From a virus, in the UHGV virus genome UHGV-0036582: a stretch of 64,000 nt of DNA; one strand, 5' to 3'. The position numbers and the translations under genes were made by a program. The notes beneath the pieces were generated by a model. That model had not been told where the DNA came from. It did not search any database and was given only the letters and a program-made list of their open reading frames with translations. This document shows positions 1-62,235 of this stretch, one piece after another (position 1 is the stretch's first letter; each line of letters opens with the position of its first letter).

Positions 1-3000
1 GAAAACGTTGAGTGGTATAAAAATAACACTGACGCGATTAATGCTGCTGGCGACAAAGCTCGTGAGGCGGCGGCCAGTGCTGCCGCAGCAGCAGAAAGCG
101 CCAATACCGCTGGAGAAAAAGCCTCTCAAGCGTCTCAAAGTGCATCCGCTGCGGCATCTTCACAAAGTGCTGCAAGTGCGAGCGCAACTGCTGCGAAAAA
201 ATCTGAAACGAACGCACAAGCCGCAAAAGAAGCGGCAGCAGAATCAGCATCTGTAGCGTCGGCCAAAGCATCGGAGGCAGCAACATCTGCGTCCAGTGCC
301 TCTGCATCTAAGGATGCAGCCAAAGTATCAGAGACTAACGCTTCATCGAGCGCAAACGCGGCAGCATCATCGGCAACAGAAGCTGCAAATTCGTCTAAGG
401 CAGCAAAAACGTCAGAGACAAACGCAAAAGCATCTGAAACGGCCGCCGGGCAGAGTGCAAAGTCTGCAAACAGTTCGAAATCTGCGGCAGAAGCCTCAGC
501 AAGCGCAGCCTCAGCAAGCGCGGATAGTGCTTCATCAAGTGCAACAGCGGCAGGAAAATCTGCGGAAAGTGCATCGTCATCAGCGACAACAGCTACCACA
601 AAAGCGACAGAGGCGACGAGTCAGGCTACAGCTGCTAAAAATTCAGCATCGGCAGCAAAAGCCTCTGAAACAAATGCAAAGACTTCAGAAGACAATGCTG
701 CTTCCTCTAAGGCGGCAGCTGCTGAATCTGCAAGTTCTGCGTCTGCATCAGCTACCTCGGCATCCGCTTCAAAAGATGAGGCGACTAAACAGGCGTCAGC
801 AGCGAAGGGCAGTGCCACGACGGCATCCACAAAGGCAACAGAGGCGGCAGGCAGTGCGACGGCTGCATCTCAGAGCAAAACTGCTGCCGAATCTGCTGCG
901 ACCCGTGCAGAAGCAGCCGCAGATCGTGCTGAAGAGATTGCCGGTGCAGTTGCGATGGAAGACGCAACCCTTACAACTAAAGGTGTTGTGAAACTTAGTA
1001 GTGCGACAGATAGCACCAGTGAATCGCTGGCTGCAACGCCAAAGGCAGTTAAAGCAGCCAATGACAATGCGAATAGTAGGGTGCCATCTAACCGAAAAAT
1101 TAACGGGAAAGCACTGACTGCGGATATCACATTAACGCCGAAAGATATTGGCACTTTAAATTCAGTAACGATGTCTTTCTCTGGCGGGGCTGGGTGGTTC
1201 AAACTGGCTACGGTTACCATGCCACAAGCGAGTTCCATCGTTTACATTGCATTGATTGGTGGCGCTGGTTACAACGTCGGCTCCCCACAGCAGGCAGGCA
1301 TTTCAGAACTGGTTTTACGAGCAGGCAATGGAAACCCCAAAGGGATTACCGGAGCTTTGTGGAAGCGTACAGCCGTCGGATTAACGAATTTCGCCTGGAT
1401 CAACACATCCGGCGATAAATATGATATTTACGTTGAGATTGGCAATTATGCGACGAGTGTAAATATCCATTGGGACTGTACTGCAAATGCGTCAGTTTCT
1501 GTTTATACCTCGCCAACATATTCAGCGAGTAAGCCTTCCGGCGTTACCGATGGCGTTGTTTATACGGTGTATAGCTCACACCAGAAACCTACACCATCAG
1601 ATATTGGAGCACTGCCAACAACGGGAGGGACTATTTCAGGTCCGTTGGCTGTTACTGGTGGGATCACCGGAACATTAAATGGCAATGCAAGTACCGCTAC
1701 GAAATTGCAGACTGCAAGAACTATCGGCGGCGTGGCCTTCGATGGCTCTGCGAACATAAATTTGCCTGGTGTAAACACGGCAGGTAATCAGAGCACTACT
1801 GGTAATGCCGCAACCGCTACAAAACTTCAAACGGCAAGAACGATTGGTGGCGTTTCATTTAACGGAACTGCCAACATCGACTTGCCCGGAGTTAACAAAA
1901 CTGGCAACCAAAGCACCACAGGTAATGCTGCTACAGCTACTAAATTGCAGACTGCAAGAACCATCGGTGGTGTTAGCTTTGATGGCACTGCGAATATTAA
2001 TTTGCCAGGTGTAAATACGGCAGGTAATCAGAGCACTACAGGTAACGCGGCCACAGCGACCAAGTTGCAAACTGCTAGAACTATTAACGGGGTGTCGTTT
2101 AACGGCTCTGCGAATATTTCAATACCAACAATTACGTCCAGAGGACGCGTTACTGCGCTCACCGGTACAACACAAGGTGCTGCGACTGGATTGCAGATGT
2201 ACGAGGCATATAACAATGGCTACCCTTCGACTTACGGGAATGTGCTTCATCTTAAGGGCGCAACGGCCGTTGGTGAAGGTGAGTTGTTCATAGGTTGGAG
2301 CGGTACAAGTGGCGCTCATGCACCTGTACATGTACGTTCGCGACGAGATACGGATACATCCAGTTGGTCTGAATGGGCGCAAGTTTATACGTCCAAAGAC
2401 TCAATTCCAGGTGTTAATGCCACCGGTAATCAGAACACTACTGGCAACGCGGCAACCGCCACCAAATTGCAGACAGCGAGAAGAATTAACAATGTGGCTT
2501 TTGACGGCACGAAAGATATTACTCTAACGCCTGGTAATATCGGCGCTGCTGCTTCGTCTCAGGCATGGCTGAATACTGGCGATTCAGGACAATCATTATC
2601 CACATCGTCATTTATTACGCTGCTGCAAAATAACGGCGCATTCAATCAGCGTACATGGATTGCTCGCTGTTCGTGGGCTTATGCTAATAACGCCTCAATA
2701 CCGGATAGCGAAACAAAATGCGGCACTATTCCGCTTGCTGGCGCACTGATTGAAATAACCAGCTTTGGCATGACTAACTACACAATTAGGATCACCACCG
2801 CAACGACTACCAGCGTTTCCGGTGCAAAAGTAAACGCCGAATTTATTTACGTTTACAATGGGGATGGTTATTCGCCAGGCTGGCGCAGGCAGTACAATAC
2901 TAAAAACCTGCCGACGCCACTTGAGATAGGAACTTACAGCAAATCGGAGATTGACAATTTAAATAGGAATTTTCTCACATCGTCAAGACTTGAAGCTGGC

Positions 3001-3471
3001 TCGTTAGATGCAAACTTCCAGACGTTAACTTGTTATTATTTGCAAATATTCGACATTCAGACAACAACCGATAGTCCTAACATGTTCGTAAGTCCGATTG
3101 CTGGCTACAACATGGTTTTTCGTTCGACTTCATCCCGTCGATACAAGACGGATATCGAGTCTTTAGAGAACAAGTACGCGGACGAGCTGTTGAAACTTCG
3201 TCCTGTATGGTATCGCTCGACTTGTGAAAGGGACAGAAAGGACTGGGGACATTATGGCCTTATTGCAGAAGAAGTCGGAGAGATAGCACCGCAATATGTT
3301 CACTGGCGTCCTCTTACAGACGAAGATGATCCAAGTATAGCGTCTGATAATGGGATGGTTGCTGAAGGCGTGATGTATGACCGTCTGGTTGTTCCACTCA
3401 TTCACCATATTCAAAAACTGACAAAAAGGGTTGAGGAGCTTGAAGCGAAGTTAAATTCACCTGAAGAATAA
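1..3471 (+). CDS. Tail fibre protein, 5'-truncated by the window edge; Ala/Ser-rich N-terminal repeat region, internal 40-aa tandem repeats, C-terminal intramolecular-chaperone-like domain
   Basis: Frame 1 is open from base 1 to the stop at 3469-3471; the listed ORF 955..3471 is only its Met-initiated tail. N-terminal region is Ala/Ser/Thr/Lys-rich repeats. Five copies of GN(A/Q)(S/A)TATKLQTARTIGGV.F.G.ANI.LPGVN. C-terminus (YKTDIESLENKYADELLKLRPVWY...LEAKLNSPEE) resembles the self-cleaving chaperone domain of phage tail fibres and spikes. Confidence 0.8.
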   Translation, partial: ENVEWYKNNTDAINAAGDKAREAAASAAAAAESANTAGEKASQASQSASAAASSQSAASASATAAKKSETNAQAAKEAAAESASVASAKASEAATSASSASASKDAAKVSETNASSSANAAASSATEAANSSKAAKTSETNAKASETAAGQSAKSANSSKSAAEASASAASASADSASSSATAAGKSAESASSSATTATTKATEATSQATAAKNSASAAKASETNAKTSEDNAASSKAAAAESASSASASATSASASKDEATKQASAAKGSATTASTKATEAAGSATAASQSKTAAESAATRAEAAADRAEEIAGAVAMEDATLTTKGVVKLSSATDSTSESLAATPKAVKAANDNANSRVPSNRKINGKALTADITLTPKDIGTLNSVTMSFSGGAGWFKLATVTMPQASSIVYIALIGGAGYNVGSPQQAGISELVLRAGNGNPKGITGALWKRTAVGLTNFAWINTSGDKYDIYVEIGNYATSVNIHWDCTANASVSVYTSPTYSASKPSGVTDGVVYTVYSSHQKPTPSDIGALPTTGGTISGPLAVTGGITGTLNGNASTATKLQTARTIGGVAFDGSANINLPGVNTAGNQSTTGNAATATKLQTARTIGGVSFNGTANIDLPGVNKTGNQSTTGNAATATKLQTARTIGGVSFDGTANINLPGVNTAGNQSTTGNAATATKLQTARTINGVSFNGSANISIPTITSRGRVTALTGTTQGAATGLQMYEAYNNGYPSTYGNVLHLKGATAVGEGELFIGWSGTSGAHAPVHVRSRRDTDTSSWSEWAQVYTSKDSIPGVNATGNQNTTGNAATATKLQTARRINNVAFDGTKDITLTPGNIGAAASSQAWLNTGDSGQSLSTSSFITLLQNNGAFNQRTWIARCSWAYANNASIPDSETKCGTIPLAGALIEITSFGMTNYTIRITTATTTSVSGAKVNAEFIYVYNGDGYSPGWRRQYNTKNLPTPLEIGTYSKSEIDNLNRNFLTSSRLEAGSLDANFQTLTCYYLQIFDIQTTTDSPNMFVSPIAGYNMVFRSTSSRRYKTDIESLENKYADELLKLRPVWYRSTCERDRKDWGHYGLIAEEVGEIAPQYVHWRPLTDEDDPSIASDNGMVAEGVMYDRLVVPLIHHIQKLTKRVEELEAKLNSPEE
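1681..2160 (+). repeat. Four tandem 120-bp (40-codon) repeats inside the tail fibre gene, with a fifth diverged copy near 2444
   Basis: Repeat units begin at 1681, 1801, 1921 and 2041 (ggyaaygc..accgctac.aaa.tgca.actgc.agaac.at.gg.gg.gt); protein-level repeats GNQSTTGNAATATKLQTARTIGGVSF.GTANI.LPGVN. Confidence 0.85.
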
Positions 3472-3597
3472 ACAACCTCAACGAGAATTAGTTTAGAAAC
3501 AAGTTCTCATTAGTTTTTTAATATATATAGGTAAGTACACGCCTATTAATTGAGGGGTGAAATATGATATAAATCCGCCATCCCGATTTGGCTTTTC

Positions 3598-3933
3598 ATG
3601 GAGGAAAACATGTCGAACGAGATGGCGGGCGTTACAACAGAGCAAGTTGAGCGTATTGCCGCGATCGTTGCTCGGGAGGTTGTTGGCAAATTAGGTAAAG
3701 AGCTACGTGAAGAAATTGGCCAGGAGGTCAACGATCAGCTGAAAACCTACTTTGGTGATATGACCCCGGCGCAACATAGTATTCAACACTCCAACCTGGA
3801 CAAACTCCTTAACCGGTTAGATTCCATCTCAAGTGGGTTCTTTGGCGGCATTGTTTCTAAAATAACGTCGTTCATTATTACCGCACTGCTTTTGGGGTTA
3901 GCCGCGTATGGCGTAAAAAATGGACTGCAATAA
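3598..3933 (+). CDS. Small membrane protein with C-terminal TM helix, possible holin or lysis regulator
   Basis: 111 aa; hydrophilic N-terminus and one hydrophobic helix ITSFIITALLLGLAAYGV near the C-terminus; sits directly upstream of the putative endolysin and spanins. Confidence 0.35.
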   Translation: MEENMSNEMAGVTTEQVERIAAIVAREVVGKLGKELREEIGQEVNDQLKTYFGDMTPAQHSIQHSNLDKLLNRLDSISSGFFGGIVSKITSFIITALLLGLAAYGVKNGLQ

Positions 3934-3946
3934 CAGGAGATCAAGG

Positions 3947-4639
3947 ATGAAGACTCCGAGAGGCATTCGTAATAATAACCCCGGTAATCTTGATAAAGGA
4001 TCACCGTGGCAAGGTCTGGTTGCGAATCCAGACGAACCGCGCTTTTGCACGTTTAAAGACCCTGTTTGGGGGATTCGTGCACTGGCGGTGACTCTAATTA
4101 CCTACCACGACAAGCGTCGCGCAAAAGACGGCTCAAGTATCGATACCATTCGTGAAGTTATTGAACGTTGGGCACCGCCGAATGAAAACAACACTGACGC
4201 CTACATTAATGAGGTGTCTAAAGCCGTTGGTGTAACCGCAGACATGATTATCGATCTGCATGATTACGACATTCTTCGACCTTTGGTTGAGGCAATCATT
4301 CGCCATGAGAATGGGCGAGGTCCGCTAAAAACGCTGAACACCTGGTATGCGGCAGAAGTTATTGAGGAAGGTCTGCGTCGAGCTGGCGTCGTTAAGCCGG
4401 TGAAAACCGTGAAGGCTGTTCCTGTAACTAAAGAAACGGCAGGCGCAACTGTTACAGCAGGTATTGGTCTGGCGCAGCTGGCCGATGTTATGCCGCAGGT
4501 TTCCGCTGCTATGGATAAAGCACAAGGTCATATCTCTAGCGGGGATACAGTACGCATCATCTTCGGTATTGCCACTATTGTTGTGGCTGGATTTATCGCC
4601 TGGTCGCAGGTAAGAAGACACCAGAAAGGGATGGTCTAA
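3947..4639 (+). CDS. Putative endolysin or cell-wall hydrolase with C-terminal membrane anchor
   Basis: Start moved to the ATG at 3947, which has an AGGAG RBS at 3935-3939. N-terminal RNNNPGNL motif, C-terminal hydrophobic helix IIFGIATIVVAGFIAWSQV. The call rests mainly on position between the membrane protein and the spanin pair. Confidence 0.4.
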   Translation: MKTPRGIRNNNPGNLDKGSPWQGLVANPDEPRFCTFKDPVWGIRALAVTLITYHDKRRAKDGSSIDTIREVIERWAPPNENNTDAYINEVSKAVGVTADMIIDLHDYDILRPLVEAIIRHENGRGPLKTLNTWYAAEVIEEGLRRAGVVKPVKTVKAVPVTKETAGATVTAGIGLAQLADVMPQVSAAMDKAQGHISSGDTVRIIFGIATIVVAGFIAWSQVRRHQKGMV

Positions 4640-7628: not shown

Positions 7629-8396
7629 TTATGCCGCGCTAACACTATGTTCAGTCCTAACCACTCCAACCTTCACAAAAGGGCTACCGTAGCTTGGTGG
7701 CTTCTTGATTAATTTGCCAACATACAGTTTTCTAATATGCTCATCGGCTATTCTGCCAACAAATTCATAACGTTTTGTGTCGGGGCCAAGAGCTATATCC
7801 CTTGTAAAGTACTGCTGAGAACCGGCTTTGACCCAGCATTCAATCTGATAAACTTCCATTATCAGCCCACCATATGTAGCGTAGGCATATTTGAGATTCT
7901 CGTCTCTTGGAACCTTTGCCCATACGCCACGCGTAGCTTCATATAATGCCAGAGCGGACATTCCTGACTTGTAGGTGCTGTTTAGCAGGAAGGCAAGACC
8001 GGCGTGCTCAGGAGCAATTTCAGTTTCCTCTTGCAGCACTAAGTGATGGTAGGCGTCCAGTGATATTCTGCCCATCATGGAACCACTTCCTCGTACCTTA
8101 TTCGTAAGCTCTCCGACCCCCATAAGGTCGATGCATGTCGCCTCAACAAGTTTGGCTGTGGTTTCATCCATACCATGACGAAGTATATCTATGCCTAATT
8201 TTTTATTAGCCAAAAGTTCTTTGATCCGCATGGATTTGGGAGAGTCATCGGGATACTTGATGTGATCGAGACAACGAGTCGATTTGCCTTTTCCTATGTA
8301 AAACGGTCTTTTCATCTTGTCTTCTGTATCATAGAGACAGTAAACATAGTATTTAGCCTTATCCAATGATCTCGCGTATACCGATAAATCGTCCAT
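7629..8396 (-). CDS. GIY-YIG nuclease-domain protein with an uncharacterised C-terminal domain
   Basis: N-terminus YYVYCLYDTEDKMKRPFYIGKGKSTRCLDH matches the GIY...YIG...R...H pattern; about 150 aa of unrecognised C-terminal sequence. Confidence 0.6.
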   Translation of the reverse strand: MDDLSVYARSLDKAKYYVYCLYDTEDKMKRPFYIGKGKSTRCLDHIKYPDDSPKSMRIKELLANKKLGIDILRHGMDETTAKLVEATCIDLMGVGELTNKVRGSGSMMGRISLDAYHHLVLQEETEIAPEHAGLAFLLNSTYKSGMSALALYEATRGVWAKVPRDENLKYAYATYGGLIMEVYQIECWVKAGSQQYFTRDIALGPDTKRYEFVGRIADEHIRKLYVGKLIKKPPSYGSPFVKVGVVRTEHSVSAA

Positions 8397-8671: not shown

Positions 8672-9421
8672 GTGAGCCACATGAGCCAAATCTTTTTCGA
8701 TACCATTGACAACGACCAGTACGACTTCATGACAGAGTGGAATACCGCTGTTATGGACAAGTGGGTCGCTGAAAACATTGGTTTGTCGCGCTGCAAAGAC
8801 GAGGCTGAACTCTTCGAGACGAAGTGGTTTGATTACCGCGATATGCATCCTCTCATGGCCACCTGTCTTTTTACGGAGGCATACAAACGTCAGTACTCAA
8901 ATATCATGCTGACGCACGGTCGCGAACACTTTGAAACAGCTCCGTTCACCACCGGGTTAAAACGCCTGCCTTATCAGGAGTTGTCGACTGCCAATAAAAC
9001 GTCTCTATGGAAAGCACGCCAGTTTGCTGACCGCTATTGCTGCTCATACGACTACTTTATCTCCACCGTTCTTTCCGCAGCTGCACGACGTCTGTGGGAC
9101 AAGCTGCCGCGTCCGCAGCATTTATGGCAGCCAGAACTGATTGAGATATTTGAAGAGAAATTAGCCAGACGCGCAATAACCCGTCTGGATGACTCTCTGG
9201 TTAGCTTTAAGCATATGGGAGACATGCAGTTCAACCCGATTCAGGAAAGCTATTTTGAGTGGATTCTGGAGCGTTTGCGCACCATCCCTCGCAGCAAGCG
9301 CATACGCGCAATTTTCTCCGCTATCTGGCTAATGGAAATCGTTCCAGAGCGCCTTATTTCCGCCCACTTTCCAGAAGAACTGGAAGAAGCACGGCGGTTT
9401 ATTGATCCCCTATCTAATTAA
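8672..9421 (+). CDS. Hypothetical protein upstream of the helicase gene (possible replication accessory factor)
   Basis: 249-aa ORF, no recognisable motif; position is the only basis for the suggested role. Confidence 0.45.
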   Translation: MSHMSQIFFDTIDNDQYDFMTEWNTAVMDKWVAENIGLSRCKDEAELFETKWFDYRDMHPLMATCLFTEAYKRQYSNIMLTHGREHFETAPFTTGLKRLPYQELSTANKTSLWKARQFADRYCCSYDYFISTVLSAAARRLWDKLPRPQHLWQPELIEIFEEKLARRAITRLDDSLVSFKHMGDMQFNPIQESYFEWILERLRTIPRSKRIRAIFSAIWLMEIVPERLISAHFPEELEEARRFIDPLSN

Positions 9422-9464: not shown

Positions 9465-10805
9465 ATGACCGAACTTTGCCATACAGGACGCGGGCTGTCC
9501 GAAGAGTTTGATGAAGATTTTCAGAACAGATTGACGGCCTATTTTTGTCGTGATCACGAGTTTCTTACTCGTGCTGGAGATCTGGTTGTACCTAGCCAAT
9601 TTGCCAATGCGGCCAATGCCATATTGGTTAATATGGTTTCGGGCTATTACCGTATGTACAAGAGCGCGCCCTCTTCATCTGCGATTCTGGATATGCTTAA
9701 GCGTGCGAAACGCGATAAGACTATCCGTGAGGAACTATTCGCCGATGTTGTTGCTGCGTTTAAGCGCATCCTTGCAGAAAAATTGTCTGATACCTCGTAC
9801 ATGGTTGACCAGGTATCAACCTTCGCAAAAAGCGTAGCGTTTGATGATGCTCTGATTAAGGCTGCTGAACTGAAAGAGAAGGGCGACTTTCAGGGGGCGA
9901 TGGCAATCATGGCCAAGGTTCAGCAGATTGGATCGAACGAAGCGACCGGAATCTATGACTACTACACCTCCGCAAGTGAGCGATTGAAAGCGCGTGAATA
10001 TGAGGCTTCAGAGGAGTATGTGCCAAACAGCATTACAACTGGACTCCCTCTGCTCGATAGGTTGCTGTACCAAAAAGGCTGGGCGAAGCGTGAAATGGTG
10101 CTCTTCATGGGGTTCGCTAAATCCGGTAAATCGACCGCAATGGGTGAGTTTTCCATAAACGCAACGCTTGCTGGCTACAATGTTCTGTATCTCTCGCTGG
10201 AGGTTCACACCAACATTTTGTCCGACCGCTTTGATGCAAGATTGTCGGAGACGGAAATGTCCAAGCTGGTGGAACGGCGCGATGAAGTTCATCGTAAGTT
10301 GGCAGAGTTGGGAGCCACTAAGGGGATTGGTAGTTTGTGGGTTGTTGAGCGTCCGTCAGGAAGTATGTCACCGGCAGATCTGGACCGTATGCTTAACAGT
10401 ATGAAAGCCAATGGCATGGTGCCTGACATGGTTGTTGTCGACTACGCAGATTTGATGCGTGCCAGTTATGACCTTCGTGATGATCGCGCCAATATTCGTA
10501 GTATCTACACCGATTTACGTGCTCTTTATGACAAGCATAACGTTGCTGGGATCACGGCATCGCAGACAAACCGTGAAGGTGGCGCGTCAGAAGTTGCCAC
10601 AATGATGCACGCCGCCGATAACATCGAAAAAGTACGTATTGCTGACCTGGTAATAACGATCAACAAAACCGAAGAAGAAGAAGCGAAAGGAGAGGCTCGT
10701 CTCTACTTTGCTGGTTCACGTAACCAGCAGGGTGGGATCAGCATTCGCGTTAAACAAAACCTCGAACAAATGCGTTTCATTGAGCGAATCTTAGACGTTA
10801 CCTAA
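9465..10805 (+). CDS. DnaB-like replicative helicase
   Basis: 446 aa; Walker A GFAKSGKST; RecA-fold C-terminal domain with the DnaB-typical VVVDYADLM segment; conserved leader aaaggaaagcacATG. Confidence 0.75.
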   Translation: MTELCHTGRGLSEEFDEDFQNRLTAYFCRDHEFLTRAGDLVVPSQFANAANAILVNMVSGYYRMYKSAPSSSAILDMLKRAKRDKTIREELFADVVAAFKRILAEKLSDTSYMVDQVSTFAKSVAFDDALIKAAELKEKGDFQGAMAIMAKVQQIGSNEATGIYDYYTSASERLKAREYEASEEYVPNSITTGLPLLDRLLYQKGWAKREMVLFMGFAKSGKSTAMGEFSINATLAGYNVLYLSLEVHTNILSDRFDARLSETEMSKLVERRDEVHRKLAELGATKGIGSLWVVERPSGSMSPADLDRMLNSMKANGMVPDMVVVDYADLMRASYDLRDDRANIRSIYTDLRALYDKHNVAGITASQTNREGGASEVATMMHAADNIEKVRIADLVITINKTEEEEAKGEARLYFAGSRNQQGGISIRVKQNLEQMRFIERILDVT

Positions 10806-35306: not shown

Positions 35307-36047
35307 ATGAAAAGAAAAATTGAAGAACCAAAAACGACTCTTAATAAACATGGGGAAAAAATTCAAACACATCCAGCGTTCGGTCTTGTGAAAACAAGCC
35401 GTGTTAGCACAACTGGCATTCGCCTATTTGATTCAGAACTGGAACATAGAGACTATATTGAAATAGGCGTTTACGAGGCGGAACTGTCCTTAGACAATGA
35501 ACGAACCCGCCCACAAAGAAGTTGCAATAGACGGCCTTTAGTTGAAATTAGACTTAGCCAGGCACAATGGGCTGCTATGGTTAGCAGTTTTGGAGTGGGC
35601 GAAGGTGTGCCATGCACTATTTCATATAAAACCATTGGAGACTCAATTAGAGTTCATGATATTGCCGAGCAAAAAAGTATTCGGCAAAAATTCAACGATC
35701 AAATAAAGGCCGCTACGAATAGTGAGATTGATCGACTTAATCAGCAAGTTTCAGAGCTAGGTGAACTTGTGAAAAAAGGAAGAGCTGGAAAACGTGACCT
35801 TGAAGAACTATATAGAAAACTAGCATCTGCTGTAGCTAACCTTCCTGAAAATCTGTGCTTTGCTACCGAATTAATGCAGGAACAAATGGATGAAATTGTC
35901 TCTTCTGGAAAGGCGGAGATTGAGGCGTATGTTGCGGGCACGGTTATGCGTAAAGGGTTAGCAGCATTAGGCACAGAATCATGCATTAACGATGATCCTA
36001 CTGTCTCTATCACCAAAATGGAAAGCGGTAAAGAATTACTGCCATAA
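35307..36047 (+). CDS. Hypothetical protein
   Basis: 246-aa ORF. Confidence 0.45.
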   Translation: MKRKIEEPKTTLNKHGEKIQTHPAFGLVKTSRVSTTGIRLFDSELEHRDYIEIGVYEAELSLDNERTRPQRSCNRRPLVEIRLSQAQWAAMVSSFGVGEGVPCTISYKTIGDSIRVHDIAEQKSIRQKFNDQIKAATNSEIDRLNQQVSELGELVKKGRAGKRDLEELYRKLASAVANLPENLCFATELMQEQMDEIVSSGKAEIEAYVAGTVMRKGLAALGTESCINDDPTVSITKMESGKELLP

Positions 36048-54088: not shown

Positions 54089-54898
54089 ATGAGTTCGGTT
54101 GAAAATGTAATGACAAATGATGATCTGGACGAGCTGACAGCCATGTTGCAATCACTTGATGAACCAGTAAAAAAAGCTGCACAGGTTGAAAATACTGATG
54201 ATATTGACGATCTGCTGCTCGGCCTAGATGCTGGCGTAGCCATGAGTTCTGATGATGTTGCCGAAGAACTGTTCAATGAAGAAAAAGCAGGTGATTTCAG
54301 CTCTGCTTTAAATGAGTTGGAGTTAGCGCATGAGCCTATAAACGTAATTAACGCTGAAAGTGTTGAAGCTGCCGAAAACGAGCCAGAACAATTGGGATTT
54401 ATTGAGGTTGAAGAGTGTGTTGAGGTTAATGATGAATTAAAAGTTCAACAGTCAAATGATAGCAATACAAATAAAAAAGCTCGTACTGCAAGAGGTCCTC
54501 GTTTTACTTTAAGTGATAAAGATGATTCGTTTTTCAATAAAGCGGGCTTAGAAAAAGATATTTTCTTAGACGCTTACGATAACGCGCCTGTCAAAGCAAA
54601 GGATAAGATATTAAACCTTCTTAATTGGTTTAGCGGAGGTCCAGATATTAGTGTTTACACGGTAATTTCCATGAGACACCTTCTCACAGAAAAGAAGGCT
54701 ACAAGTAATAGTATTAAGATTGCTTTAATGAGCAATCCAGAAAAACCGTATCCGCTTAATACTGCGTCAACTCAGGCTGGGCAAATGATGGCTGTATTTC
54801 CAGCGACAGGAATTGCCGTTAGAGACGGTGGAAATCTAACATTGAACGAAGAATCACCGATCGTTAAGAAGTTTGTCGCGGAGTACACTATTGGATGA
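54089..54898 (+). CDS. Highly acidic protein of unknown function
   Basis: 269 aa; N-terminal half dominated by Asp/Glu (DDLDELTAMLQSLDE...DDIDDLLLGLD...); lies upstream of the Dam-like methyltransferase. Confidence 0.5.
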   Translation: MSSVENVMTNDDLDELTAMLQSLDEPVKKAAQVENTDDIDDLLLGLDAGVAMSSDDVAEELFNEEKAGDFSSALNELELAHEPINVINAESVEAAENEPEQLGFIEVEECVEVNDELKVQQSNDSNTNKKARTARGPRFTLSDKDDSFFNKAGLEKDIFLDAYDNAPVKAKDKILNLLNWFSGGPDISVYTVISMRHLLTEKKATSNSIKIALMSNPEKPYPLNTASTQAGQMMAVFPATGIAVRDGGNLTLNEESPIVKKFVAEYTIG

Positions 54899-58199: not shown

Positions 58200-58625
58200 A
58201 TGTTAGGTTTCTTCAAAAAGAAAACTCGTAAAGCTGTTATCGAAGTCAAAAAAATGGAGAACCGTGATGCGGTTGAGGCCACCGTGTGGGGCGCGTACAT
58301 GATCTCCTATGCCGACGGCACATGTGACGCAAAAGAAATTGCCATTCTTGAGAAGACAATTGCAGCTCTGCCTGCGTTTTCTCCGTTTGCTGGTGAAATT
58401 GCCCAAATGAGCGCCAATATCCGTGCTCGTTACGAAGCGTCCCCTCGTTCTGCTAATGCACAGGCTATTCGTGAGCTGTCTGATATTGCGGGTACTCCAG
58501 AGGCGGTCGATGTTCTGTGTCTGTGCCTTGATATTGCCGATCAGGACGGCATTGGTGAACAAGAAGAGCAGGCACTGAAAAAGATCGCCCAGGCGCTTCA
58601 GTTGTCACTGGATGCTTATCTCTAA
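58200..58625 (+). CDS. TerB-like domain protein
   Basis: 141 aa; helical protein with paired acidic motifs (SYADGTCDAKE and DIADQDGIGEQEE) resembling the TerB fold; conserved leader aaaaggaaaacacATG. Confidence 0.4.
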   Translation: MLGFFKKKTRKAVIEVKKMENRDAVEATVWGAYMISYADGTCDAKEIAILEKTIAALPAFSPFAGEIAQMSANIRARYEASPRSANAQAIRELSDIAGTPEAVDVLCLCLDIADQDGIGEQEEQALKKIAQALQLSLDAYL

Positions 58626-58783
58626 TGCTTGAGAGATTCCGGCTTGTGATCGTCATTGCTCTTCTGGTGATGGCGGTGTTGGTGGATTTTACGGGAAAGA
58701 TGATGTCTGTCATTTCTGATGGCGTCCTCATTGGTTTGGCGATCTACTTCGCTTATCCGTTAGTTCGTAAAGCAAAGTGTTAA
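58625..58783 (+). CDS. Small two-TM membrane protein translationally coupled to the TerB-like gene
   Basis: 52-aa ORF below the ORF-track cutoff; start overlaps the upstream stop (TAATG); MLERFRLVIVIALLVMAVLVDF...VLIGLAIYFAYPLV. Confidence 0.35.
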   Translation: MLERFRLVIVIALLVMAVLVDFTGKMMSVISDGVLIGLAIYFAYPLVRKAKC

Positions 58784-58922: not shown

Positions 58923-59492
58923 ATGTGCAAGAAATGCAAAGCGATAGCTGATGAACAAAACGCCTTATTCGAAGAAATGGATGCTAATGAACTGGTCAAA
59001 ATGTTAGCCATTCTTCGAGGAATAGAAGACGTTTCCATATTTGAGAGAGTGGTTACAGCACTTAATTTTGAGTCCACCTTTGAAGAGCCAACTCAGGTTG
59101 TAGCTTTAGCACATCATTTCGGTGTTCATTATCTTGCTGAAAAAGAGCGCGCTGATAAGTTGCAGGCGACTTTGGATATGGTGAGCGAGACTCAACGAAC
59201 TGATGACACTAACAAGAGTGAGGCGATTATTGCCAGCAAAGATCGTGAAATTGCTGGGCTTAAATCCTCTCTAACGATGTTGATGTCTGCGTTCAATCTT
59301 ATGTCTTCTCAGGCGGGTTATAAAATGCCATCACTAAACAGCGATGATCCGATGGCCGTTCGTCAGCTTTTGGGAGCAATGGCCGACCAACTCGACGACA
59401 CAAAGAGTCGGCTTGAAGACATGATGCGTGAGTTAAGCCATCGACATAACCTCGCAACACAGCCACACAAAGCCTTTCAAAGCTCTAATTGA
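58923..59492 (+). CDS. Hypothetical protein
   Basis: 189-aa ORF with leader ggaaaaacacATG. Confidence 0.45.
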   Translation: MCKKCKAIADEQNALFEEMDANELVKMLAILRGIEDVSIFERVVTALNFESTFEEPTQVVALAHHFGVHYLAEKERADKLQATLDMVSETQRTDDTNKSEAIIASKDREIAGLKSSLTMLMSAFNLMSSQAGYKMPSLNSDDPMAVRQLLGAMADQLDDTKSRLEDMMRELSHRHNLATQPHKAFQSSN

Positions 59493-59547
59493 TCTGATAT
59501 GGCCGCATGATCGGCCATATTGTGTTGATAAAAAACAAGGATGAAAA

Positions 59548-59829
59548 ATGGCATACGGTACAGGGATTTACAACAATAAAGGAATTAACGTTACTGGCTT
59601 CCTTACTCCTATTTTTTTTCTTGATCGATTTACGGCGTCATCAGGCTCTAAGACGTACTCCAATCCGCCACCGGGTAAATCGCTACATGCCGTGTGGTCA
59701 TTGATGCCTCTTAACAACGACAACTACATTAATTTACCTGTTCCAACAGTTACTATTAATGGAAATACGGTTAGTTGGTCAAATTTATATACGGGGCTTG
59801 GTTCTTACATATACACATACTGGGGATAA
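59548..59829 (+). CDS. Hypothetical Asn/Tyr/Gly-rich protein (AT-rich gene)
   Basis: 93-aa ORF; lower GC than the surrounding genes. Confidence 0.4.
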   Translation: MAYGTGIYNNKGINVTGFLTPIFFLDRFTASSGSKTYSNPPPGKSLHAVWSLMPLNNDNYINLPVPTVTINGNTVSWSNLYTGLGSYIYTYWG

Positions 59830-59831
59830 TT

Positions 59832-60446
59832 ATGTTCGGGATGTCAATTACTCAATCAGATGGAAGTTTGTGGATGAGTCCAGAATTTACTCCGCAAAAT
59901 CTGATTAATAAAGGGACAATGTCTACATCTAAAGGTTCTGTTTTTCAAACATCAATCCCATCAAACAAATCATGCTTTTTCTTCATAAAAAGCAGTAATA
60001 AGGCGAACATGATGTTTATTCATGAGCATAGTAACGGATACAATGCTCTCAGATTGCATCAGGTAAATGGTAGCCCCGGAACAATAACAGTTTATGCTTT
60101 TTCTGATATGGTGTTACCACATTCTGGCTATGGCATTGCCATGTATAACAGCGCAGGCGCAATGGTGTATCACGGTGAGATGATGCCCCTTGATGCGAAA
60201 CTTATCACTATTTCGGACCCTCAATTTACCATAGATGTGGGGTATCCGTGTGCGGTAATGCCTGCTATGGTTGGGGTTTATAACTATAGACGAACCGATT
60301 ACGACAGACCTGTCTATGTAACTATGACCGGTGCAACTGGAAACCAAGTATATAACGGTCAATGGTATTCCGGTAATGTCACATGGGATATTAAGAAGAT
60401 TTATACAAACAAAATCCTGGTTATAAATACCTCAAAGTATGATTAG
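59832..60446 (+). CDS. Hypothetical protein (AT-rich gene)
   Basis: Start set at the ATG at 59832, directly after the previous stop; 204 aa. Confidence 0.4.
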   Translation: MFGMSITQSDGSLWMSPEFTPQNLINKGTMSTSKGSVFQTSIPSNKSCFFFIKSSNKANMMFIHEHSNGYNALRLHQVNGSPGTITVYAFSDMVLPHSGYGIAMYNSAGAMVYHGEMMPLDAKLITISDPQFTIDVGYPCAVMPAMVGVYNYRRTDYDRPVYVTMTGATGNQVYNGQWYSGNVTWDIKKIYTNKILVINTSKYD

Positions 60447-60508
60447 CAAATACCTTTATTTAAAGGATTGCCTGTTAATTTCTATTTAGCACCTTTTCAT
60501 TTTTGAAA

Positions 60509-60550
60509 TAATTGCACCATTAAACAAATCTTTTCTTAATGGTGCAATTA
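60509..60550 (+). promoter_or_regulatory. Perfect 15-bp-stem hairpin covering the translation-initiation region of the methyltransferase gene
   Basis: taattgcaccattaa ... ttaatggtgcaatta; the right arm ends at the A of the ATG at 60550. Confidence 0.5.
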
Positions 60551-62235
60551 TGAATACAGCTCTTTCCATCATCGACGATGCCAACTCAAACACTGCTATC
60601 GATTATCGTCAGGAAATGAACGTCATCCACGAAATTGTGGCCGAGTGCGAGAAGGAGATCGCCTTCATGTATCAGGTTCACGACTTCGTTTATGGAGACG
60701 AACGCCACAACATGATTAATCGCCTGCTGCAACTGAACCACCGACCAGATGAAGAACGCTCACGTTTGAATCGAGCTTGGCTGGATAAAGTCGATCTGGA
60801 ATGGGTGAAACAGAATATTTGGGCCGAGTACTGGAGGAAGGTCACGGATATGACTAACGTTCTGCTGATCATGCCAGCTTCCCGTCGCGACGAGTGGCGT
60901 GAGCAGTTTATCGAGGGTAAGCAGGAAGTCATCAAAACTGACAGAACCGGCTATCAGATGAAGGTAAAAGAGTTCGTTGGTGTACCGGAGTTCAAAGCAG
61001 AAACGGTCATACCCACGATGCTTAATTTGCTGAATGACAGGCACAAATATCTCTCTGAGCGCGTGTATGGCTTGTTTAAGGCGCTGAGTCCTGCGCACAA
61101 GACAAATAAGACAAACGGTTTCAGCGAACGTCTGATAATCGCTGACTGCATTTCTGATTTCTGGCGGGACAGCGTTAGTGTGAACTATCGCAAAGAGGAC
61201 TATATCGACGATCTGCGTGTCTTGCTTCATTTCTTCGCGCACAAAGAATTTATTACCATCAACCGCACTGCTGAGGTGCTATCAGCTGCGTATCGGGCAA
61301 ACGACTGCCAGACCGGTGACTGGATGAACGTCGATGGAAATCTGATGCGCGTGAAGATGTTCAAGAACGGCAACGTTCACTTTGAAATACATCCTGACGT
61401 GGCCTGGAAGTTGAATGAGGTGCTGGCTTACAGTATGCCTGCTGCAATCCCCGCGCCATGTCGCACCGCGCCAAAAACACGGGCACCAAAGCAGTTCGGG
61501 TTAATCCAGAAGACGATCTCCGTGCCGGTTCGCACTGCGCTTCGTGACGGGCGATTGAGCAAAGACAAAGGCGTATGGTACTTCTCTGATTCAGCTCTCC
61601 AGAAGTCGCAGGTGGAAGAGCTTGAGCGCACACTGAGCTTCATTGGCGGCGTGCAGGAGAAAAAGCACTGGCAGTTCCCGTATGACATCGTCCATACGCT
61701 AAATACGATTGTGGCTACCGGTTTAATACCGGATACAAAATCACACCAGTTCTACCCTACCCCACGCTTGATTGCTGAGTACGTTGCCAGAGCCACTGAA
61801 TTGAAGTCTGGTGAGAAGCTGCTGGAGCCTCAAGCCGGACGTGGGGATCTTCTGGCCTATATTAACGCCGATCTGGAAGATGTTACCTGCATAGAAATCG
61901 CACCTCTCTTCGCTGATATCCTGCGTGGAAAAGGGTATACGAACACGATTTGCTGCGACTTCATAAAGTGGTCTGAGGACAACGTAGGTTATCAGTTCGA
62001 CAAAATCGTTATGAACCCGCCGTATTCGCTTGGTCGTCATAGAGAGCACACGCTGGCTGCGCTGGGGCATCTGAAAGTCGGCGGGCGTCTTGTAGCAGTA
62101 TTGCCGGGCACTGCGCCAATACTGGACTGGATGACGATGGATAATTACGTTTATGCCAGAGGGAAGTCGTTTACCAACGAGTTTGAAGACACAGGGATCA
62201 CAGTCAGCGTATACGTTTTCAAACGCGTTAAATGA
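60550..62235 (+). CDS. Orphan DNA methyltransferase (N6-adenine type) fused to a large N-terminal domain of unknown function
   Basis: C-terminal 150 aa carry QFYPTPRLIAEYV, SAM-binding LLEPQAGRGDLL and catalytic IVMNPPY; the N-terminal 400 aa or so have no recognisable motif. Confidence 0.7.
   Translation: MNTALSIIDDANSNTAIDYRQEMNVIHEIVAECEKEIAFMYQVHDFVYGDERHNMINRLLQLNHRPDEERSRLNRAWLDKVDLEWVKQNIWAEYWRKVTDMTNVLLIMPASRRDEWREQFIEGKQEVIKTDRTGYQMKVKEFVGVPEFKAETVIPTMLNLLNDRHKYLSERVYGLFKALSPAHKTNKTNGFSERLIIADCISDFWRDSVSVNYRKEDYIDDLRVLLHFFAHKEFITINRTAEVLSAAYRANDCQTGDWMNVDGNLMRVKMFKNGNVHFEIHPDVAWKLNEVLAYSMPAAIPAPCRTAPKTRAPKQFGLIQKTISVPVRTALRDGRLSKDKGVWYFSDSALQKSQVEELERTLSFIGGVQEKKHWQFPYDIVHTLNTIVATGLIPDTKSHQFYPTPRLIAEYVARATELKSGEKLLEPQAGRGDLLAYINADLEDVTCIEIAPLFADILRGKGYTNTICCDFIKWSEDNVGYQFDKIVMNPPYSLGRHREHTLAALGHLKVGGRLVAVLPGTAPILDWMTMDNYVYARGKSFTNEFEDTGITVSVYVFKRVK

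Follow-up and report, generated by a model that had tools for sequence, protein, structure and literature searches.

The 64,000-nucleotide stretch of viral DNA analysed here (UHGV virus genome UHGV-0036582; hereafter, the window) carries two adjacent genes at positions 59548-60446, which we call orfA and orfB. The region is 98-99.9% identical to ~108-kb non-mobilizable Escherichia coli plasmids and to the phage records Cyrano (pLF82), CMS-2020a, and PhiR41_1. Such elements are SSU5-like phage-plasmids (PMC9928086), and judged by this identity the window is part of an E. coli SSU5-like (siphovirus) phage-plasmid. The original prediction, drawn from the letters alone, had described an AT-rich pair encoding beta-rich, Asn/Tyr/Ser/Gly-rich proteins that resemble carbohydrate-binding or receptor-recognition proteins more than enzymes, and had regarded the pair as probable, horizontally acquired cargo. 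The features at this locus are as follows.

59548-59829, + strand: orfA, 93 amino acids; small all-beta protein, PHROG 557
59832-60446, + strand: orfB, 204 amino acids; all-beta protein, PHROG 425
59537-59541, + strand: Shine-Dalgarno-like AAGGA, 6 nucleotides 5' of the orfA ATG (direct sequence reading)
59822-59826, + strand: GGGGA, the ribosome-binding site of orfB, within the end of orfA (direct sequence reading)
59497-59520, + strand: perfect 9-bp inverted repeat ATATGGCCG / CGGCCATAT with a 6-nucleotide loop, at the left junction of the insertion
59472-60469, no strand: inserted segment of ~1 kb carrying the pair, absent from SSU5 and from empty-site plasmids

Composition and predicted fold of the gene pair

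The stop codon of orfA (TAA, 59827-59829) and the start codon of orfB (ATG, 59832) lie on the same (+) strand with a gap of 2 nucleotides, a layout of translational coupling. A longer open reading frame (ORF) with a TTG start from 59775, present in the mechanical ORF list, was discarded as an overlap artefact. No terminator was called after orfB. Nor did the terminator scan call the inverted repeat at 59497-59520, which may be a weak terminator or a remnant of the junction; at the matching position, SSU5 has a classic GC-rich hairpin followed by a T-run.

The AT-richness of the pair is real but modest, with a guanine-plus-cytosine (GC) content of 39.5% versus 45.5% for the window (z = -1.8; 3% of same-sized segments are lower) and a GC content at third codon positions (GC3) of 0.38 versus a mean of 0.47. 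Stronger compositional outliers than the pair occur at 35307-36044 (PHROG 6452, GC3 0.30) and 54089-54895 (PHROG 5235, GC3 0.32). Far more extreme than the GC bias is the amino-acid bias: among the 56 + strand ORFs, orfA ranks first and orfB second to fourth in Asn, Asn+Tyr, and Asn+Tyr+Ser+Gly content, and the two proteins have the lowest charged-residue content. Their AlphaFold2 monomer models are confidently all-beta (pLDDT, the predicted local distance difference test, 83 for orfA and 81 for orfB), the N-terminal segment of orfB being disordered (pLDDT ~40) as would be expected of a strand that folds upon docking. Neither protein has a signal peptide, lipobox, or transmembrane segment (maximum Kyte-Doolittle(19) 0.94 and 1.22), and the N-termini, MAYGTGIYNNKG... 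and MFGMSITQSDGS..., do not resemble signal sequences. The compositional and structural description in the original prediction thus stands.

Membership in two phage protein families

Over its full length, orfA matches PHROG 557 ('outer membrane protein'; E = 4.7e-29), and orfB likewise matches PHROG 425 ('membrane associated protein', moron category; E = 2.7e-72); both labels are misannotations. Scans of the two proteins against PADLOC (E <= 1) and NCBIfam returned no match. By tblastn, the pair is present in ~280-330 phage genomes. Among these, Nonagvirus JenP1, JenP2, and BRET share 76% (orfA) and 82% (orfB) amino-acid identity and 78% nucleotide identity with it, the JenP1 counterparts being gp22 (76%) and gp21 (82%). 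Short-tailed Shiga toxin (Stx)-converting phages (phi24B, 933W-like, P13374) follow with 63% for orfA and 61% for orfB, and Dhillonvirus and many T1-like Drexlerviridae with 40-49%. Further away, orfA is 30% identical to SSU5_023 and 28% to T1 gp32, and orfB aligns to SSU5_024 by hhalign at E = 8e-11.

An adjacent, co-oriented order with the small gene before the large one is common to JenP1, phi24B, SSU5, T1, and SECphi27. In T1 (gp32/gp31), SECphi27, JenP1, phi24B/P13374, and SSU5, the pair sits directly beside the gene for the central tail fibre or needle (J); N15, HK022, and Dhillonvirus likewise have both families next to J. A gene for a Cor-type superinfection-exclusion lipoprotein follows it in T1, SSU5, SECphi27, and the plasmid p4_0.2 (described below); JenP1 and phi24B have none. 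An exhaustive profile search also retrieved fusion proteins of ~315 amino acids whose N-terminal ~80 residues match PHROG 557 (4e-8) and whose C-terminal ~210 match PHROG 425 (4e-28), arguing for joint action of the two families at a 1:1 ratio. Both proteins and both fusion halves begin with a shared motif, M-x-Y/F-G-x-x-I/V...G; across 43 diverse members of the orfB family, only G11, F90, L120, and Y203 are invariant.

Searches of the Protein Data Bank (PDB) by sequence, using a fused relative (P0080), a close-homologue profile (A1), and a diverse profile (A3), gave nothing relevant. Foldseek with orfA against the PDB found nothing significant and no match to lambda gpJ, and in this way a resemblance of the small protein to the receptor-binding domain of lambda J, as claimed in print, could not be reproduced. 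With orfB, Foldseek found no PDB match at E <= 0.001, and the PCSK9 C-terminal domains heading its list were taken as generic beta-sandwich noise.

In Nonagvirus JenP1 (positions 7792-7943 and 8843-8876 of the locus examined), the homologous pair forms a separate convergent transcription unit, with promoter-like hexamers in an AT-rich upstream region and a perfect hairpin, AAATGTGCACACATTATGTGTGCACATTT, between the pair and the end of J. This arrangement fits a self-contained mobile cassette.

In all phages examined, including T1 and SSU5, where it belongs to the native tail module, the pair is AT-richer than its surroundings (z -0.65 to -2.2). Low GC is a trait of the PHROG 557/425 families and therefore, taken alone, says little about recent acquisition here; as a sign of recent transfer it was rejected. 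Probably, Asn/Tyr/Ile/Lys-rich composition and frequent exchange of the cassette both contribute to the trait. Conserved virion components of native composition in relatives had been named as the finding that would contradict the original prediction. Conserved virion components do occur (a phi24B homologue in the virion proteome, the SSU5 pair in its native tail module), but native composition does not, as the relatives share the AT-richness.

Insertion of the pair and loss of the canonical cassette

Homology between the window and SSU5 breaks off at 59471 and restarts at 60470, which places the pair on an insertion of ~1 kb. SSU5 has nothing between the gene for a 189-amino-acid protein and the methyltransferase gene that flank it. 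The left flank is common to 180 E. coli/Shigella plasmids, of which ~118 carry the insertion and ~60 match only to 59471 (empty site); in the latter, the 189-amino-acid gene directly abuts the DUF4942 methyltransferase gene. It is thus synteny, not composition, that evidences the insertion. The horizontal acquisition put forward in the original prediction is borne out by this presence/absence pattern, with the ~1-kb segment missing from SSU5 and about one third of the sister plasmids, and by nearest relatives in the lytic genus Nonagvirus.

SSU5 has its own PHROG 557 + PHROG 425 + Cor cassette within the tail module, between the fibre adhesin and holin genes. In the empty-site plasmid p4_0.2, tail fibre and holin likewise flank an SSU5-type pair (68% and 74% identity to the SSU5 proteins) and an unannotated cor (59%). 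In a blastn comparison of the window with p4_0.2, homology extends to 3481 and resumes from 3528, skipping the 1154-bp cassette of small and large receptor-binding protein (RBP) genes plus cor.

3482-3527, no strand: junction of tail-fibre and lysis genes without the SSU5-type cassette

A second pair or a cor gene was sought by tblastn and found nowhere in the 64-kb window. The two cassettes show a complementary distribution: among the matches listed, the canonical cassette is present in 14 of 15 empty-site plasmids versus 2 of 48 pair-bearing ones (Fisher p = 5e-11, relatedness uncorrected). The two plasmids with both cassettes are CP056788.1 and NZ_MG904996.1; all five genes are intact in CP056788.1, the one examined, and from their sequences these plasmids look like an intermediate state. 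Four phage records of the lineage (Cyrano, two CMS-2020a, and PhiR41_1) carry the inserted pair only. Cyrano is inducible and releases DNA-filled siphovirus particles (PMC9928086). The PhiR41_1 record lists K-12 MG1655 as host; a literature search found no paper describing this phage.

In NZ_CP023851.1 (~9988-10200, minus strand) and in CP056788.1, we also observed a gene for a Cor-type lipoprotein (MMKRLFLTIAVVLSLTGCQKLP..., 59% identity to SSU5 Cor) that lacks annotation; in both cases it is flanked by the holin gene and the gene for the canonical large RBP. The canonical large protein, annotated with 188 amino acids in SSU5 and p4_0.2, probably starts 14 codons further upstream (MYGSKIYRSDGKVW...), as in the annotation of CP056788.1.

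A shared J tip and purifying selection

The J gene lies just upstream of the window rather than inside it, and its product was read from relatives: in a 99.9%-identical plasmid and in Cyrano, J ends ...VINGQRIDVYDDNNVLRVRIGRL. Its last 120 amino acids are identical in canonical-type and insertion-type plasmids and nearly so in SSU5. Since the cassettes themselves are only ~26-30% identical, this shared tip argues that both serve the same J, and the sequences fit interchangeable adhesins in a conserved J socket. The C-terminal ~190 amino acids are 37.5% identical to the C-terminus of JenP1 J, and the terminal motif V.D.NG.LRV.IGRL recurs in JenP1 J and in the needle of phi24B.

Between the window and Cyrano, the ratio of nonsynonymous to synonymous substitution rates (dN/dS) is 0.08 for orfA and 0.04 for orfB, and 0.06 for orfB against JenP1; at 0.04-0.08 within the lineage, both genes are real and under selection. 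A count over 5426 complete E. coli genomes gives 150 with this allele, nearly always plasmid-borne, and both ORFs appear intact in ~150 genomes. In one E. coli plasmid (NZ_JCATIJ010000003.1, 135768-137443), an IS1B element interrupts the pair, a natural knock-out. In the transcriptome of the LF82 lysogen, CYRAN_88 and CYRAN_89, the 98-99% identical homologues of the pair, are not among the Cyrano genes expressed above background (PMC9928086).

A proposed receptor-binding module at the tail tip

We consider it likely (a probability of roughly 70%) that orfA and orfB form a horizontally acquired tail-tip receptor-binding module, a functional replacement of the ancestral SSU5-type cassette. Both proteins would be made in the cytoplasm during lytic growth, neither carrying an export signal, and would be held by non-covalent contacts at the C-terminal tip of the central fibre, a J trimer, and so be present in the virion. 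There, orfB may act as the distal cap that recognises an E. coli outer-membrane beta-barrel protein, and orfA as its 1:1 partner or adaptor. The cassette would have entered the early/accessory region horizontally, between the 189-amino-acid gene and the DUF4942 methyltransferase gene, from a pool common to Nonagvirus and short-tailed Stx phages. It would have made the ancestral cassette (pair plus Cor lipoprotein) redundant, with deletion of the latter in this lineage. The label of cargo is not supported: genes expressed in the LF82 lysogen do not include the pair, which appears to replace a deleted core virion function.

Published work on these families points the same way. In the BASEL study, a variable, horizontally exchanged locus beside gpJ tracks terminal receptor specificity in Drexlerviridae, Dhillonvirus, Nonagvirus, and Seuratvirus (PMC8594841), and a genetic screen of 255 phages confirms that the gpJ-adjacent locus does so (bioRxiv 10.64898/2026.04.02.716166). 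Taken together, the two sources assign this role to the locus in Drexlerviridae, Dhillonvirus, and Queuovirinae. Using AlphaFold-Multimer and in silico docking, Matusiak et al. (2025) modelled a 'hand-like' PHROG 425 protein capping the J tip with an 'Ig-like' small protein alongside, and their membrane-affinity calculations disfavour membrane insertion (PMC12309495). In phi24B, the 204-amino-acid homologue (gp54/vb_24B_42, 61% identical to orfB) was detected in the virion proteome at low abundance, and cryo-electron microscopy (cryo-EM) shows extra asymmetric density at the needle tip that matches the two-protein heterodimer (bioRxiv 10.64898/2026.04.10.717836). The distal J tip is unresolved in the T1 cryo-EM paper, which hence holds no structural evidence on gp31/gp32. 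Seven enterohaemorrhagic E. coli podophages with 61-65% identical homologues are neutralised by purified BamA (PMC12502783), and the RBP of phage Oekolampad binds LptDE (PDB 9RPT), the neighbouring lipoprotein Rtp45 excluding superinfection (PMC12685063). The expectation of receptor recognition rather than enzymatic activity therefore agrees with families that form a tail-tip receptor-binding module in many siphoviruses and in Stx podoviruses. Carbohydrate binding finds no such echo: characterised relatives target outer-membrane proteins (LptD, FhuA-type, and the BamA-dependent phages).

BamA is the leading receptor candidate, albeit a tentative one that is not assignable from sequence, on the grounds that the closest carriers to have been characterised depend on BamA and, as here, have no cor; FhuA or another barrel is possible. 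A bolder and rather doubtful extension is that one invariant J tip serves as a universal socket for swappable cassettes at two loci, that the host-range determinant has moved from the late tail operon to the accessory region, and that the plasmids with both cassettes (CP056788.1 and NZ_MG904996.1) make mixed virion populations. If so, two receptor specificities would occur in such a population, one linked to Cor and probably of FhuA type, the other like that of Stx phages and possibly of BamA type, amounting to host-range bet-hedging or to a receptor switch caught in progress.

The families are known and were already proposed as RBPs; in searchable papers, neither a pair so far from J nor two cassettes that alternate on a single J tip appears to have been described for phage-plasmids. 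Replacement of one cassette by the other with J tips that stay identical offers a genetic line of argument, independent of the still largely computational case for PHROG 425/557 proteins as RBPs, a case that takes in the BamA-dependent Shiga toxin phages. Identification of the likely module also corrects the widespread misannotations 'outer membrane protein', 'membrane associated protein', and 'C39 peptidase'. SSU5-like phage-plasmids are found in ~3% of the complete genomes of E. coli, and resistance genes can be part of them; a swappable cassette outside the tail operon would offer a handle for predicting their host range.

Evidence that weighs against this role

Several observations count against the proposed replacement module. 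The pair is placed among early/accessory genes, away from J and any tail gene; in Cyrano, J occupies 17.7-22.4 kb and the pair 81.9 kb, a separation of about 60 kb. The promoter scan around the pair found none between the upstream gene and orfA, and the window, the surroundings of the pair included, has neither a cor homologue nor an ORF with a lipobox. Thirteen of the 73 records with a canonical cassette fall outside the matches used for the cross-tabulation, and the related plasmids within it are not independent observations. The small subunit of phi24B (gp55) was not detected in virions (bioRxiv 10.64898/2026.04.10.717836), and for the PHROG 425/557 branch as a whole receptor binding is modelled, not biochemically demonstrated.

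The link to a proven RBP, which in itself speaks for the role, also proved remote. Rtp44 belongs to DUF6453 (1.4e-113; 379 bits) and to PHROG 1265 (8.8e-99) and is a homologue of 9rpt_C (8.5e-44), that is, of RBP-Oeko. Although orfB reaches E = 2e-6 against PHROG 1265, its match to Pfam DUF6453 (E = 0.015; 15.1 bits) lies under the gathering cut-off of 25. Aligned by hhalign to Rtp44, 43 diverse family members give E = 1.8e-4 and a probability of 48% over a 61-residue core; profiles of close homologues were unconvincing (E = 0.038 and 0.3) and were set aside. Among the Foldseek matches of the orfB model, 9rpt_C is the sole biologically sensible one, and a weak one (rank 4, probability 0.91, E = 0.054, template-modelling score only 0.33/0.27). 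Judged from these comparisons, homology of orfB to Rtp44/RBP-Oeko is remote and limited to a core of ~60 residues.

Alternative explanations

Small chaperones encoded downstream are common at tail-fibre loci, for example lambda Tfa and T4 gp38/gp57. One or both proteins could likewise be assembly factors, chaperones that help the J tip or the lateral fibre to fold or trimerise and are absent from mature virions, as the missing gp55 in the phi24B virion proteome would allow and as was raised, in the form of a chaperone-like role, in PMC12309495. We hold this to be improbable: the large subunit is present in phi24B virions, where extra density caps the needle; in several phage families, receptor specificity follows the allele at this locus; for RBP-Oeko, the distant homologue, receptor binding is direct; and a J tip that stays identical despite cassettes of ~26-30% identity favours swappable adhesins over chaperones that co-evolve with their client. 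There is still less room for a moron, that is, lysogenic-conversion cargo acting in the envelope of the lysogen, e.g., by superinfection exclusion or surface modification. The PHROG labels and the 'moron' category suggest it, as do the accessory neighbours (TerB/TciA-like, TciB-like, methyltransferases, Ea22-like), the position next to lom in Stx phages, and the horizontal insertion of an AT-rich segment. However, neither protein has a signal peptide, lipobox, or transmembrane segment, the membrane-affinity calculations cited above (PMC12309495) disfavour insertion, and PADLOC gave no matches. Moreover, the Cyrano homologues are not among the genes expressed during LF82 lysogeny (PMC9928086), the pair is found in strictly lytic phages (T1, Nonagvirus, Drexlerviridae), and a homologue is part of phi24B virions.

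Many phage-plasmids of this kind might be defective as phages, and the pair a hitch-hiking remnant without current role that landed in the accessory region as a fragment of another phage's tail module. Its distance from the tail genes, the lack of a detected promoter, and the IS1 insertion in one genome would all be in keeping with that, and loss of the canonical cassette could be decay of a domesticated plasmid. We nevertheless regard a remnant as very unlikely given dN/dS values of 0.04-0.08 within the phage-plasmid lineage, ORFs apparently intact in ~150 genomes, translational coupling that has been kept, an inducible relative (Cyrano) that releases DNA-filled particles, and an otherwise intact virion module in relatives. 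Hardly credible at all is a C39-type cysteine peptidase, the identity implied by the PGAP product name 'cysteine peptidase family C39 domain-containing protein' on WP_000467662.1 (e.g., NZ_OZ369471.1, 1785-2399). Cys48, His114, and Cys140 of orfB are indeed invariant in close homologues, but not in the wider family (43 diverse members), and SSU5_024 and T1 gp31 have no Cys or His at the Cys48 and His114 positions. As Pfam yields no Peptidase_C39 at E <= 1, NCBIfam no match, and the predicted all-beta fold no peptidase match, profile, conservation, and fold tests effectively refute this identity. The label is probably a misannotation that is now propagating through recent records.

Comparison with known systems

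The proposed receptor-binding module is most similar to modules of the T1 gp32/gp31 type, among which we count N15 gp22/gp23, the HK022 homologues, SSU5_023/024, the Dhillonvirus JLBYU60 pair ('Ig-like' plus 'hand-like' proteins), and phi24B gp55/gp54 (vb_24B_41/42). All comprise the same two families in small-then-large order and tight coupling, and share with orfA and orfB the N-terminal motif (M-x-Y/F-G-x-x-I...G) and the ...Y-D C-terminus of the large subunit. Here as there, the partner J-type fibre ends in V.D.NG.LRV.IGRL and has no lambda-like receptor-binding domain. Unlike those modules, the present pair lies ~60 kb from J in an accessory region and coexists or alternates with a second, ~26-30% identical cassette on the same J tip; unlike in T1, N15, SSU5, and SECphi27, no Cor-type lipoprotein gene accompanies it.

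Rtp44/RBP-Oeko resembles the homologues of the pair in occupying a J-adjacent locus in its own phages and in being a beta-rich protein of its own that is presumed to sit on the tip of J. It is, however, a single polypeptide of ~310 amino acids, as opposed to a pair of 93 and 204, and nothing here corresponds to Rtp45, its cognate exclusion lipoprotein. LptD is established as receptor for the Rtp44/RBP-Oeko family only, which gives no basis for assigning it to orfB. T5 pb5 (Oad), which comes with Llp, is, like the proposed orfB, a monomeric RBP held non-covalently on the tip of a central fibre, and it binds an outer-membrane barrel (PMC12685063). No sequence or fold relationship between pb5 and orfB was detected, and pb5 is ~3 times larger and encoded in the tail module with an exclusion lipoprotein. 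A precedent for an adhesin gene far from its fibre gene is gp38 of the T-even-like Krishvirus, at a distance of ~55 kb, put down to displacement or independent horizontal acquisition (bioRxiv 10.64898/2026.04.02.716166). In contrast to the pair, this gp38 is from an unrelated family, serves the long tail fibre of a myovirus, and has no reported alternation with a copy at the canonical site.

Neighbouring genes and further features of the window

The gene order around the pair is RNase H, TerB/TciA-like, TciB-like, the 189-amino-acid gene, orfA and orfB, the 561-amino-acid DUF4942 DNA methyltransferase, and Ea22-like. The TerB/TciA-like (141 amino acids) and TciB-like (52 amino acids) genes (window 58200-58783) occupy the place of the anti-repressor (Ant) gene of SSU5 (SSU5 80936-81670), and by this comparison the backbone stretch upstream of the pair appears as a gene-replacement hotspot. 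Downstream, at 60508-60551, we noted a 21-nucleotide inverted repeat, ATAATTGCACCATTAAACAAA / TTTTCTTAATGGTGCAATTAT, with 90% complementarity and a 2-nucleotide gap, which ends at the ATG (60550) of the methyltransferase gene. One of its arms, TTTAATGGTGCAAT, is kept at the same place in SSU5, and the repeat could be a candidate operator or translational control hairpin of the methyltransferase gene.

At its other end, the window begins with tail-fibre and lysis genes:

1-3471: lateral tail-fibre gene; the window opens inside it (at least 1156 amino acids)
3598-3933: gene annotated as holin in Cyrano
3920-4639: endolysin gene

The lateral tail-fibre gene (1-3471) has internal repeats and a C-terminal endosialidase-chaperone-like (S74-type) region. 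Its identity to Cyrano and p4_0.2 is 83% across the first 2 kb and is followed by strong divergence, arguing at the sequence level that the lateral fibre is a second variable host-range locus of the lineage.

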